A DNA stretch of 64,000 nucleotides from a virus (IMGVR_UViG_3300022602_000051:1-64000); one strand, 5' to 3'. Numbered from the stretch's first letter, positions 18,973 to 23,820 are shown. Numbers and translations: made by a program. The notes: generated by a model from the letters alone, not told the origin.

Positions 18973-20091
18973 CTATGGTGCCTGAGATGCCAAAGGTTTT
19001 ATATAATACTGTTTGCTTAATATTGTTTTATTTGCCGCAGAGCCGATTATGTTATTATCAAATTGTTTTGTAATTTCTATACCTTGAGTATATATGCTTA
19101 AAGTTTGTTTGTCATTATTTTTTACATGATTATAAAATTTAATTGCATCTAATGATTTTTCATCATTCGAATTGTAAAATTTGTGCAATCCAGTAATACT
19201 TGTAATATCAGAATTGTTTAAAGAAAACCTTCCCATGCCTTTATTCCAATTTTCATAATATTTGTAATGTATTTCTGTACTACGATTTCTGCCTTGTATA
19301 TCATGAACTAAATCCTCGTTAAGTTCAGGCAAAGATTCAAACCATCTTATAACCATATGTGTTTGTTTAATGTTTAATTGTGGCAAGTCATTACTATAGT
19401 AAAAATTTTCTTGATTTGCCGCCATATTTTCAACACCAACATTATCTGGAATAAACGAATACCATTTATTACCTTGTAATAATACTCTTGGTTTGTCAAT
19501 TCCCATTATATTGCACCGATGATTATTAGAATTTTGAAATTCAGGCAAAATTTGTGTGCTAAAATATCTATGTGTTTTTGCAATTTTTAAACTACAACCA
19601 GGATGATAAATCCAATCTAGCCCATTTGATTTATAAAATTCATTTAAAGAACGATAATCAACTTTAACAACATTAATTTTAAGATTTGGAAAATATTGAT
19701 CTTTTACTAATTTTGCATGTGATATTGAATATTTTAGTTCGGGATCATCAAAAAAATCACTGCGATCCATTATTAGTATTTCATCTAATGTGATATTATT
19801 ATCAACAAAACTACGCAACATAGTATGACTATCATATCCACTGCTATACCACAGTGAAATATAATTGTATTTGTCTCGAATTTGTTGACATCTAACTTTC
19901 AAAAGTTCATGCCAACTATAATCAGGTTCATGTGTCCAGTCTACGTTATCCCACGTATCTTCCATCCAACTAAATTTAATACGTGAAAAATCACCTCTCG
20001 CTAATTCTAACGCAGCAATTTTACTGTATATTTTTTTATTGTCAACCAAATAATAACTGTCAAAATTTACTTCGACTGAAAATTTACTCAT
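18973..20091 (-). CDS. Adenine nucleotide alpha-hydrolase (PP-loop) superfamily protein
   Basis: ISLWYSSGYDSHTML is a variant SGGxDS PP-loop; overlaps the permease stop (translational coupling). Confidence 0.65.
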   Translation of the reverse strand: MSKFSVEVNFDSYYLVDNKKIYSKIAALELARGDFSRIKFSWMEDTWDNVDWTHEPDYSWHELLKVRCQQIRDKYNYISLWYSSGYDSHTMLRSFVDNNITLDEILIMDRSDFFDDPELKYSISHAKLVKDQYFPNLKINVVKVDYRSLNEFYKSNGLDWIYHPGCSLKIAKTHRYFSTQILPEFQNSNNHRCNIMGIDKPRVLLQGNKWYSFIPDNVGVENMAANQENFYYSNDLPQLNIKQTHMVIRWFESLPELNEDLVHDIQGRNRSTEIHYKYYENWNKGMGRFSLNNSDITSITGLHKFYNSNDEKSLDAIKFYNHVKNNDKQTLSIYTQGIEITKQFDNNIIGSAANKTILSKQYYIKPLASQAP

Positions 20092-20833
20092 AACTATATT
20101 TTTTCTTTAATCTATTCAACAAACTATTGATAATAATACCTGTTAGTGCAATAACAAATAGAATAGCATACATTTGATCAATATCCAATTTGCTCTTTAC
20201 ATCAATAATATATGACCCTATACCAAAATACCCACCAATACTACCAAAAACTACCTCTAAACTAATTAATATTCGCCAACTATTTGCCCAGCCTGTGCTT
20301 GCAATCCCTATCAAATTGCCAATAGCAGCAGGTATATAAACTTTAGTAAGTGCTTTTGTGCCACTCCATTGCAAATTTTGTACTTGTTTCCCCCACAGTT
20401 CATGCACACTTTCAATTGATCGCAATACTTGCAATCCACTTTGCCATATTATATTCCATATAATGATACTATATACAACTGCCGCACCTAACCCCATAAA
20501 GAGGCTCATAAAGGGAACAAGTACAAAACTTGGCAGTGGATTAAAATATGCACAATAGCGTTCAAATAATGCCTTTAACCAACTATACTTTAAACAAAAT
20601 AATATAATAATAATAGTAATAAACATGCCAATAATATAACTTAATAACAGTGTTCGCATTGTATAATAAAGACTTAACCAAAATTTAGCAGTCCATACAA
20701 GATCATATAGTGCAAACAATATAGTCGTGCTATCTGGAAATATTAGAGGTTCTTGTACAACAAGATACAAAACATGCCACCCCATTAATATAAGTGATAT
20801 GGACAAAACATTAAACAGAAAGGATCGAAACAA
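20084..20833 (-). CDS. ABC transporter permease, NitT/TauT (SsuC/TauC-like)
   Basis: About six TM helices; PLPSFVLVP, KVYIPAA, SWRILISLE, G.G..I motifs. Confidence 0.85.
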   Translation of the reverse strand: MFRSFLFNVLSISLILMGWHVLYLVVQEPLIFPDSTTILFALYDLVWTAKFWLSLYYTMRTLLLSYIIGMFITIIIILFCLKYSWLKALFERYCAYFNPLPSFVLVPFMSLFMGLGAAVVYSIIIWNIIWQSGLQVLRSIESVHELWGKQVQNLQWSGTKALTKVYIPAAIGNLIGIASTGWANSWRILISLEVVFGSIGGYFGIGSYIIDVKSKLDIDQMYAILFVIALTGIIINSLLNRLKKKYSYE

Positions 20834-21416
20834 TTAAATCATCCTCGTAAGTTATATCTTTTATACCGTTTTTACTAAGCAAATATATACTGTCGCCTAC
20901 AATTCGTGCTTCGGTTACATTGTGGGTAACCCATAAAACAGTTAGGTTTTCTTCATGAACAATTTCACGAAAATCTTTTGCAACTGTTGCCCCTGTTATT
21001 CCATCAAGCGCACTTAACGGCTCATCGCATAACAATGTTGATAATCCGCTACATAGTGCACGTATAAGCGTAAATCTTTGTCGTTGCCCACCACTTAGAT
21101 TTGGTGGTTGGTGATCTAGATATTGTTCTAAATTCCATCGTTTTACCAAATCAATATATGGTTTTTTGCAAACATAATCTAAATTTTTTCGTACTGTCAT
21201 CCATGGAAACAATTGATGACTTTCTTGAAAAACATAAAATTGATTTTTAAATATAACATTTGAACTTGTAGCAAGTGAAGCAAGCAAACTTGTCTTGCCT
21301 ACTCCACTTGTTCCCATAATAACAGCAATTTCTCCTGCTTGCACCGATAAATTTATCGGTGTAAACAGCGGAATAGTGCCATTAACTGCGACAATATGGT
21401 TTTTAAGGTTAATCAC
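20811..21416 (-). CDS. ABC transporter ATP-binding subunit, NitT/TauT (SsuB/TauB-like)
   Basis: Walker A GTSGVGKT, VFQE..LFPW.TV..N, LSGGQRQR, LLCDEPLSALD, VTH; likely GTG start overlapping the upstream TGA. Confidence 0.92.
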   Translation of the reverse strand: MINLKNHIVAVNGTIPLFTPINLSVQAGEIAVIMGTSGVGKTSLLASLATSSNVIFKNQFYVFQESHQLFPWMTVRKNLDYVCKKPYIDLVKRWNLEQYLDHQPPNLSGGQRQRFTLIRALCSGLSTLLCDEPLSALDGITGATVAKDFREIVHEENLTVLWVTHNVTEARIVGDSIYLLSKNGIKDITYEDDLIVSILSV

Positions 21417-22582: not shown

Positions 22583-23161
22583 TTAAATAAATTTACCAAG
22601 CAATTCAAATGGTTCATTTAAACCAATATGAAAACCTACTCTACTGCTTGATAATAAATCTACACCATGCAATATACGACTGTTTAAAATGCACCATTTG
22701 TTCAAAGGAATATGCACGCGATCTATTTCTGTCAAAAGATTATAATCATGCACCCTTGCTTTTTTTTCTCTAATAAGTGACTTTTCTTTTTCTTTATACC
22801 ATACAGTATATGGTTTTTCACCACCCAGTGCAAGCAAATATATTAAAACATAATCACGTGTTTTATCAGTGTGCGCACCTTTATGATCACCTTCCGTAGT
22901 TTTTGATATATTAATTGCATTATATCCACTTGTAACAATATTTTCACGAAACCAGTCTTTGACATTTTCGCTTAGTTTATATTGAACAAATGCTACACTT
23001 TGCTTTGATTTGTTATCAACAATATCAACTTCGCTAGCTGATTTTGGCCACCACCACCAATCTTCATGAATATTATTGTCAGAAATTGAATTTAGACTTT
23101 GATCAATAATTTCTTGAGGAACTTGTGGTAAATCAACAAATTTATAACACCATTCATGCAT
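22583..23161 (-). CDS. Putative Fe(II)/2-oxoglutarate oxygenase (DSBH fold)
   Basis: HTD...LIYLL...LHGV...R pattern (HxD...H triad). Confidence 0.6.
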   Translation of the reverse strand: MHEWCYKFVDLPQVPQEIIDQSLNSISDNNIHEDWWWWPKSASEVDIVDNKSKQSVAFVQYKLSENVKDWFRENIVTSGYNAINISKTTEGDHKGAHTDKTRDYVLIYLLALGGEKPYTVWYKEKEKSLIREKKARVHDYNLLTEIDRVHIPLNKWCILNSRILHGVDLLSSSRVGFHIGLNEPFELLGKFI

Positions 23162-23172
23162 TTTTAATTCCT

Positions 23173-23820
23173 TTAAATTGGTTTAGTAGATATTACAATT
23201 TCTTGTATATAGTGTTTTTCATCAAACAAAGAAAGGGTTAACCTTTCTACTATATCATGTGTTGTAAGATGCAGATCACTGTAATATTCATTATTTTTTT
23301 CTTGAGTCCACTTATCAAGTAGTCTATTCTTAAGTAAGTCAGTTTGAGTTTTTCCTACTCTCACAAGCAGAATTCCATGTTTAGAATCTTGTAATTCATG
23401 TCTAAGTGCATTAATATAAGAGCGTTGAGCAAATCTAGATAGACCATAAGCAAGACGATTTTCCATTATATGATCGCCATTGTGAGCACTGCCGATAAAA
23501 ATAACTTTGCTCCATTTATCTTTTCGCTGATTTAGATAGCTATGCGTAAATTTCATCTGACCAATTAAATTAGTTTTTAAAGTAATTTCAATATCAATCC
23601 AATTTTGTTGTAAATGTGGCACATTTCCTCGTGGATCAATACCACAACTAAGCACCAAATAATCATAATCGTGCAAATCTGTATTATAATCAGCACTACA
23701 AACATCAAATTCTTTTCTGCCTACAGCAGTAACCATTATATTATTATTACGCATCAACTCTGCAACTGCACCGCCAATACCAGTTGTTCCACCAATAATT
23801 AACGCTTTAAGCACACGCAA
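23173..23820 (-). CDS. Short-chain dehydrogenase/reductase (atypical YxxxR)
   Basis: IIGGTTGIGG, TNLIG, IFIGS, AYGLSR, G.TQT.L. Confidence 0.8.
   Translation of the reverse strand: MRVLKALIIGGTTGIGGAVAELMRNNNIMVTAVGRKEFDVCSADYNTDLHDYDYLVLSCGIDPRGNVPHLQQNWIDIEITLKTNLIGQMKFTHSYLNQRKDKWSKVIFIGSAHNGDHIMENRLAYGLSRFAQRSYINALRHELQDSKHGILLVRVGKTQTDLLKNRLLDKWTQEKNNEYYSDLHLTTHDIVERLTLSLFDEKHYIQEIVISTKPI

Follow-up and report, generated by a model that had tools for sequence, protein, structure and literature searches.

Among the closest described counterparts of the locus reported here are bacterial operons in which a small-molecule importer is encoded together with tailoring enzymes. In tauABC and ssuABC, the importer consists of one substrate-binding protein (SBP), one ATPase, and one permease gene. 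Transport operons in bacteria can also be headed by a riboswitch: the thiamine pyrophosphate (TPP) riboswitch occurs with ATP-binding cassette (ABC) transporters for thiamine precursors, and the NMT1-motif xanthine riboswitch heads genes for NMT1-type binding proteins and dioxygenases. Nutrient genes carried by phages are usually lone binding proteins. Complete ABC systems have been noted in huge phages, in another context (bioRxiv 10.64898/2026.10.24.761521). Here, we describe a cassette at positions 18,973–23,820 of IMGVR_UViG_3300022602_000051:1-64000, a stretch of 64,000 nucleotides (hereafter the window) from an uncultured freshwater T4-like jumbo phage. A preliminary description, made from the sequence alone, had read the cassette as a complete NitT/TauT-type importer with associated enzymes. 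A late promoter with a structured RNA leader, the exchangeability of the ABC importer between phages, and the placing of the PP-loop protein in a large, apparently virus-only family go beyond that description.

Like Escherichia coli tauABCD and ssuEADCB, the cassette combines a three-gene importer of the same broad family with an operon-encoded oxygenase that would act on the imported compound. It differs from them in that its scores against the corresponding family models lie far under the cut-offs, the oxygenase is neither TauD nor SsuD, and a ligase-like PP-loop enzyme is added; moreover, the operon is phage-borne, with late and early phage-type promoters and a structured RNA leader. With the PstS of cyanophages and the ABC systems of huge phages it shares binding proteins or importers that presumably raise uptake during infection, whereas in the present case dedicated enzymes and a dedicated RNA leader go with the importer, and elsewhere it is swapped for components of tripartite tricarboxylate transporters (TTT) or for porins. 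As in bacterial riboswitch operons, an aptamer-like 5′ leader precedes transport and tailoring genes, and the gene set resembles the NMT1-motif regulon. In contrast to those leaders, the phage RNA has no counterpart in Rfam, and forms a four-way junction of ~125 nt; all contigs in which it was found are of phage type. The literature searched contained no description of the RNA, of the PP-loop family, or of the module. Taken as a whole, the locus is probably a working, RNA-controlled operon for the uptake and tailoring of a small organic anion in a Gram-negative host.

Six intact open reading frames (ORFs) on the minus strand encode a short-chain dehydrogenase/reductase (SDR), an oxygenase, the SBP, the ATPase, the permease, and the PP-loop enzyme (Table 1). 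The last four overlap by 25, 23, and 8 nt, in line with the overlaps noted in the preliminary description. Its statement that all three ABC components are intact was borne out as well. The ATPase and the permease passed their Pfam cut-offs, and the SBP carries a signal peptide ending in AHA, with E as the next residue. All ATPase motifs that had been named were read in the translation (Walker A GTSGVGKT, the LSGGQ signature, Walker B LLCDEP, and the H-loop VTHN), together with a Q-loop, and the protein matched phrog_293 (“ABC transporter,” E 3.5e-35). All traits of a type I ABC importer are thus present, namely a motif-bearing ATPase, a BPD_transp_1 permease, and a co-encoded secreted SBP, and the three genes form a complete importer, probably of the NitT/TauT type.

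Matches of the SBP itself were weak and below cut-off, to NMT1 (17.7 bits vs. 20.5; E 0.0036) and to SsuA_fam (30.1 bits vs. 163.5; E 2.7e-7); its closest homologues carry PF13379/PF09084 in precomputed annotation. A profile search against PDB returned NrtA as the nearest solved relative (E 5e-4). The equivalents of NrtA H196 and G240 and the GxH and GxPW motifs are kept in the phage protein, and the equivalent of K269 is not. The best NCBIfam matches of the permease were SaoP and TauC, far under their cut-offs (25 bits vs. 342). Ratios of nonsynonymous to synonymous substitution rates (dN/dS) in the cassette ranged from 0.08 to 0.30 against the closest relative, with dS near saturation; the values were 0.08 for the SBP, 0.13 for the permease, and 0.14 for the SDR (against locus L003). 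Judged by these ratios, the importer is under purifying selection.

The PP-loop protein had no Pfam, NCBIfam, or PHROG match, and no member of its family, which comprises 1330 clusters at 50% identity matching at E ≤ 0.001, matches Pfam meaningfully. The family consensus is WYSGGxDS and the window protein reads SSGYDS, a variant of the SGGxDS motif that, set in a Rossmann-like fold, characterizes the PP-loop superfamily. The AlphaFold2 model was confident (predicted local distance difference test, pLDDT, 92.6), and its best structural matches in VIA-align were AsnB (Z 11.4 over 291 aligned residues), human ASNS (10.2), beta-lactam synthetase (9.6), and NadE (8.2), with TsnB9, carbapenam synthetase, GuaA, and TilS also matched; Foldseek matched it to LarE with a probability of 1.0. 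On the basis of the best of these matches, the modelled protein is an AsnB-type synthetase domain. The N-terminal class II glutaminase domain with its Cys1 is lacking, and residues 1–55 form only a small beta element. The phage enzyme thus shares the PP-loop motif, the synthetase-domain fold, and the expected chemistry with asparagine synthetase B, beta-lactam synthetase, and NAD synthetase; it differs from them in having no N-terminal glutaminase and no Pfam model, in its low identity (8–12%), and in its apparent restriction to viruses. From the fold, the enzyme would be expected to adenylate a carboxylate or lactam oxygen, followed by attack of an amine.

The family is apparently virus-only. 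The nearest ESM Atlas clusters of the window protein were 100% viral, and the family had a single match in 185,579 species genomes, on a 2.3-kb contig of a metagenome-assembled genome (MAG). The PP-loop family, including the window protein, and the SBP (tblastn), as well as the cassette as a whole (blastn), had no match in 50,697 GenBank phage records.

The oxygenase-like gene preceding the transporter, proposed earlier from an HxD...H pattern, is supported by both conservation and fold. Residues H97, D99, H165, and R174 were invariant in 35 homologues, and the AlphaFold2 model (pLDDT 95) matched PHD2, ABH2, KanJ, AspH, and proline hydroxylase in Foldseek, all with the double-stranded beta-helix fold. 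The iron triad, the 2-oxoglutarate (2OG)-binding arginine, and the fold of the 2OG-Fe(II) oxygenase superfamily are therefore all present. The protein had no Pfam, TauD, or PHROG match, and was assigned neither to the TauD/TfdA dioxygenases nor to the SsuD monooxygenases. Its gene lies either before the RNA or after the permease gene in related loci. The SDR, which had also been counted as part of the cassette, is a real gene, but it is an optional member: nine related loci have it, and six others whose sequence covers its position lack it (L004, L008, L010, L012, L017, and L024).

Table 1. Features of the RNA-led cassette (positions counted from the first nucleotide of the window).
Feature	Position	Strand	Length	Basis or remark
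Short-chain dehydrogenase/reductase (SDR)	23173–23820	−	215 aa	Pfam adh_short, 50.3 bits
Small 2OG-Fe(II) oxygenase-like protein	22583–23161	−	192 aa	Conserved residues and fold
T4-type late promoter, exact TATAAATA	22561–22568	−		Sequence and conservation
Structured RNA leader	22422–22565	−	core ~125 nt	RNAalifold, covariance model, covariation
Sigma70-type promoter TTGACT-N17-TAATAT, extended −10 TG	22405–22433	−		Between the RNA and the SBP ribosome-binding site
Periplasmic SBP, putative NMT1/NitT-TauT type	21413–22387	−	324 aa from ATG	Signal peptide, homologues; ORF open to 22414
ABC ATPase, compact form	20811–21437	−	208 aa	Pfam ABC_tran, 68.9 bits (cut-off 25)
ABC permease	20084–20833	−	249 aa	Pfam BPD_transp_1, 34.6 bits (cut-off 26.4)
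PP-loop ATP pyrophosphatase	18973–20091	−	372 aa	PP-loop motif and fold; apparently virus-only family

Two promoters were recognized upstream of the SBP gene. The first, TATAAATA, is the only exact copy of this sequence in the window, where 8.6 would be expected by chance, indicating strong depletion of the exact sequence window-wide. Its TAAATA core occurs 26 times, of which 13 lie at most 160 nt upstream of a gene on the same strand; the distance to the start codon is 146 nt in the cassette and 1–61 nt for the other twelve gene-proximal sites. The core is enriched upstream of genes and behaves as the late-promoter core of this phage, which encodes a gp55 late sigma factor (27161–27991), and ATAAATA was invariant across 11 related loci. 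The second promoter, of the sigma70 type, had already been pointed out in the preliminary description. A promoter scan by itself performed no better than chance (60 promoter-like sites vs. 46 expected), but the critical positions of this site, namely TTG of the −35 element, the extended −10 TG, and TA...T of the −10 element, were invariant in the 11 loci. Such conservation would fit early expression, as had been proposed.

A GC-rich structured RNA directly follows the late promoter. It folds into a four-way junction with a nested three-way junction and a core invariant in sequence; RNAalifold predicted 29 pairs, distributed over a closing stem (P1), a hairpin (P2), a long arm holding the three-way junction (P3), and a second hairpin (P4). 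The covariance model gave the window RNA 138 bits. Over 98 distinct sequences, 93% of cells could pair, compared to 23–49% in slid controls, and compensatory changes were found in 19 of the 29 pairs; none of 500 shuffles reached the observed values. The junction nucleotides were invariant. This 98-sequence alignment was fitted to the model, and the first alignment of 11 sequences, made with MAFFT and RNAalifold, was not. Rfam returned no match at E ≤ 1 for the RNA of the window or of loci L136, L079, and L051, the NMT1 motif included. No second copy was present in the window when the covariance-model search was run with its filter off (next best E 0.44). A short leader of a late gene at window positions 64–135 (minus strand) has two 9-mers in common with the RNA core and was not scored as a copy by the model. 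A terminator-like hairpin (AGAAGC/GCTTCT) at the 3′ end of the RNA was rejected as a candidate, being specific to the window and not kept in relatives.

The RNA is not confined to the window clade. Covariance models built in this analysis detected it in distant phages. In all, more than 100 further contigs of uncultured phages, of lake and marine origin, have operons that begin with this RNA, in most cases together with a PP-loop gene. A pattern for a divergent subtype of the RNA matched 44 viral contigs and at least 120 metagenome contigs, again from lakes and the sea; a relaxed pattern gave 120 matches, mostly random, only 2 of which were real. In four jumbo phage genomes of 320–349 kb that are 92–98% complete, the RNA occurs exactly once per genome. 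Among 52 unique RNA-bearing loci with at least 4 kb downstream, 45 carried a PP-loop gene and 38 encoded part of a transporter on the same strand, of the TctC/TctA type in 37 of them and of the ABC type in one. The first gene behind the RNA was most often the PP-loop gene, TctC, or TctA, with Gram-negative porins and TauD-family dioxygenases among the others (TauD/TfdA first in seven loci). In most of 127 RNA loci, this gene begins within a few tens of nt of the RNA 3′ end, with no terminator between. One recurrent RNA-led operon encodes a hexapeptide transferase, a fatty-acid-desaturase-like protein, an Asp/Arg-hydroxylase-like protein, an NAD-synthase-like PP-loop enzyme, and an epimerase.

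The association of enzymes and transporter suggested by the preliminary description therefore holds well beyond the window: PP-loop and oxygenase genes accompany the importer in related loci, and the distant phage locus L051 repeats the order RNA, SBP, ATPase, permease, and PP-loop gene at 25–41% protein identity. The RNA is the constant part of the module and the PP-loop enzyme its usual companion, often with oxygenases; the importer is exchangeable, and its ABC form is in the minority. Tandem pairs of RNA-led operons also occur in some phages, and both operons of such a pair include a TctC and a PP-loop gene of their own (L285:973-1118 and L285:3216-3362). In related jumbo phages, the island holding the module also contains genes for Gram-negative porins, a PstS-like phosphate-binding protein, GT2 glycosyltransferases, and a MoxR-VWA pair (L201:4607-8279, L185:773-1675, and L050:3651-4361).

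In the mechanism that we propose, the secreted SBP would capture a small organic anion in the periplasm, and permease and ATPase, presumably as homodimers by analogy with three-gene NitT/TauT systems, would import it. The translationally coupled PP-loop enzyme may then adenylate a carboxyl or lactam oxygen of the imported compound, or of a derivative, and exchange this oxygen for an amine by amidation or ligation, by analogy with the synthetase domain of asparagine synthetase. The 2OG-Fe(II) oxygenase, together with the SDR where present, would tailor the molecule oxidatively. Transcription from the sigma70-type promoter would yield an early mRNA without the leader, and transcription from the T4-type late promoter TATAAATA a late mRNA starting with the 125-nt structured RNA, which could gate late expression as a cis-acting sensor.

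Several observations weigh against this picture. The SBP, the PP-loop enzyme, and the oxygenase all stayed below the cut-off of every Pfam and NCBIfam model, and PHROGs likewise returned nothing for these three. The PP-loop motif of the window protein departs from the family consensus at one glycine, and NrtA, the nearest solved relative of the SBP, binds nitrate, which is not a substrate for adenylation. With regard to the RNA, a conserved terminator or anti-Shine-Dalgarno expression platform was not found across the wider RNA set. The promoter interposed between RNA and gene in the window clade would also allow the RNA to be a separate small RNA. The TctC proteins encoded behind the RNA in phages share 15–23% identity. 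Such diversity, next to an invariant RNA core, suggests that the imported compounds may differ, which argues against the RNA sensing the imported compound.

A serious contender, if one that we do not favor outright, is that the RNA is not a metabolite sensor at all. It could be an independent late small RNA, or a leader that is bound by a phage protein or stabilizes the mRNA, with the operon regulated by its promoters only. The interposed sigma70-type promoter with its conserved positions, the missing expression platform, and the diversity of the binding proteins all speak for this explanation, and so does a weak copy of part of the RNA, its inner three-way junction, which scores 28 bits and lies between two tail-fibre-like genes, upstream of one of them, in phage G001 (L059:1501-1644, corresponding to G001:82750-82893). 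This explanation fits less well with the short, terminator-free distance from the RNA to the first gene in most loci, with the single copy per genome tied to one functionally coherent gene set, and with the invariant junction nucleotides and covarying stems, which are typical of ligand-binding aptamers.

A structured 5′ leader with covariation and an invariant core, associated with a coherent set of genes, has some of the traits of a riboswitch, and we infer that the leader is a cis-acting sensor, i.e., a riboswitch candidate, that would gate late expression. In the window clade, the 3′ strand of P1 (GCUCCUUU-like) is complementary to the AAGGAG ribosome-binding site, which the 5′ strand of P1 mimics. 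This arrangement resembles translational ON switches, a likeness that is suggestive only. A bolder version of the riboswitch reading, which we advance tentatively and at somewhat less than an even chance, is that the leader represents a new riboswitch class, limited so far to aquatic jumbo phages. It would sense one conserved metabolite and switch on, late in infection, diversified uptake-plus-ligase operons that are built on virus-only PP-loop amidoligases with exchangeable ABC, TTT, or porin hardware.

Concerning the imported compound, scavenging of sulfur from organosulfonates, as by tauABCD and ssuEADCB, was considered. A sulfonate would be imported, the oxygenase would free sulfite for phage protein synthesis, and the PP-loop enzyme would take part in sulfur activation or transfer. 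SsuA_fam was the best NCBIfam match of the SBP, and TauC was matched by the permease, but both scores were far under the cut-offs, and the nearest solved SBP is NrtA rather than SsuA. The operon does contain a 2OG oxygenase, and TauD/TfdA dioxygenases directly follow the RNA in the seven loci mentioned above; the oxygenase of the window, however, has no TauD match, and members of the TauD family are limited to other RNA-led loci. CysD and the adenylylsulfate (APS) and phosphoadenylylsulfate (PAPS) reductases belong to the PP-loop superfamily and matched the fold of the phage enzyme at Z ~6, but the closest folds are those of AsnB-type amidoligases (Z 11.4), not of sulfur enzymes. In addition, most related operons use TctC/TctA, classically carriers of carboxylates. 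We therefore regard sulfonate scavenging as unlikely.

Still less probable is a role in remodelling the envelope, in which binding proteins and porins would alter the surface or periplasm of the infected cell, e.g., to mask receptors or to exclude superinfecting phages, with transport only a side effect. Porins, TctC, and, at a single locus (L201), a PstS-like binding protein do cluster at the module in related jumbo phages, and the cassette forms an island that evolves fast and varies between strains. The ATPase in the cytoplasm and the permease in the membrane are intact, however, and translationally coupled to a cytoplasmic enzyme, and the PP-loop enzyme present in 45 of the 52 RNA-bearing loci has no obvious role in the envelope.

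The variability of the cassette was apparent both between phages and within natural populations. Seventeen related viral contigs, 16 found through the SBP and one (L024) through the RNA pattern, carry the SBP, ATPase, and permease genes at the same site, between gp46/PDDEXK and hub/portal genes, with the oxygenase and PP-loop genes present wherever the contig reaches that far. Core proteins of these contigs were 73–96% identical, as against 36–89% for the cassette proteins. The cassette is also mosaic: L003 has the closest SBP, and L011 the closest PP-loop enzyme and permease. Between 82 and 100% of the window was present in four metagenome runs. In X2 and X3, lake metagenomes from different studies, the cassette is tiled without a single difference by contigs with a depth of 28–36 (29–43 in the flanks), and depth was even across the cassette junctions in X1–X3, with no break that would point to a chimera. 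A contig joint from 18953 to 23807 in X2 and X3 skips 4853 nt, and depth in X4 was ~8 inside the cassette vs. 117–137 outside. Both observations indicate co-occurring strains with common flanks and a different cassette, i.e., a strain-variable island, hypervariable in nature, rather than an assembly artefact.

That the operon was captured recently from a host, or that the assembly is chimeric, might have been suspected from the bacterial NMT1-type proteins of Pseudomonadota that are the nearest ESM Atlas look-alikes of the SBP, and from the slightly lower GC content of the cassette (0.32–0.34 vs. 0.38–0.40), but it is already contradicted, and can be practically discounted, by the even depth at the junctions, the synteny in 17 contigs (all 16 relatives from the viral collection at the same phage site), the metagenomic origin of all 19 SBP homologues with at least 45% identity (on contigs of up to 345 kb), the lack of any near-identical bacterial operon in our searches, and the yield from 185,579 species genomes of no match to the exact clade RNA pattern and one to the PP-loop family. 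Neither of the findings named beforehand as refuting the preliminary description, a near-identical chromosomal operon with a coverage break or missing co-occurrence of enzymes and transporter, was thus made.

The phage origin of the cassette, also assumed in the preliminary description, is evident from its neighbors. Searches with Pfam, NCBIfam, and PHROG models placed phage hallmark genes beside it, encoding the gp55 late sigma factor, gp47/gp46, a PDDEXK nuclease, a baseplate hub, and a portal protein, the last with 48% identity to the portals of jumbo phages Atu_ph07 and PA5oct. The window comes from a 97,956-bp IMG/VR virus contig with a rated completeness of 29%, so that the whole genome would measure ~340 kb. 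The source element is an uncultured freshwater T4-like jumbo phage and not a chimera. Its host may be Gram-negative, possibly a member of the Burkholderiales, considering the permuted transfer-messenger RNA (tmRNA) of a related phage, the porins, and the Bug-like TctC proteins. This tmRNA, of a betaproteobacterial type, adjoins the RNA-led operon together with many tRNAs at L051:4588-4949 (phage G001, a 157-kb contig). ARAGORN detected no tRNA or tmRNA in the window.

A second conserved structured RNA, of ~300 nt, follows immediately behind the PP-loop gene (window positions 18590–18972, minus strand). Its nucleotide conservation is higher than that of the neighboring genes, and RNAalifold predicted 89 pairs, 19 of them with compensatory changes across nine loci. 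It has no Rfam match and is neither a tRNA nor a tmRNA. A plus-strand ORF of 76 aa at 18711–18941 is probably an artefact of this RNA. Past the end of the window, a homologue of ThyA-type thymidylate synthase (G000:C1:81176-82012; E 2e-102) was found, which is missing from the four near-complete related genomes searched. Two further candidate functions of the module were rejected. Modification of DNA with 7-deazaguanine is unsupported, as no TGT/DpdA was found in the four module-bearing genomes that are 92–98% complete, and phage-encoded NAD salvage is unsupported, as no NAPRTase/NAMPT-type enzyme was found.

The present locus links a complete importer to enzymes and to a previously uncatalogued RNA. 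The PP-loop proteins, with 1330 clusters, no Pfam model, and an apparently virus-only distribution, constitute a large enzyme family that is still unexplored. Should the RNA prove to be a riboswitch, it would be among very few phage-specific classes and would offer a direct route to the metabolite that these phages monitor; if it indeed represents a new class of the kind outlined above, the module would be a pathway peculiar to phages for salvaging or tailoring organic acids from the environment. Knowing the substrate would reveal what jumbo phages draw from their surroundings while they infect a cell, and for what reason.

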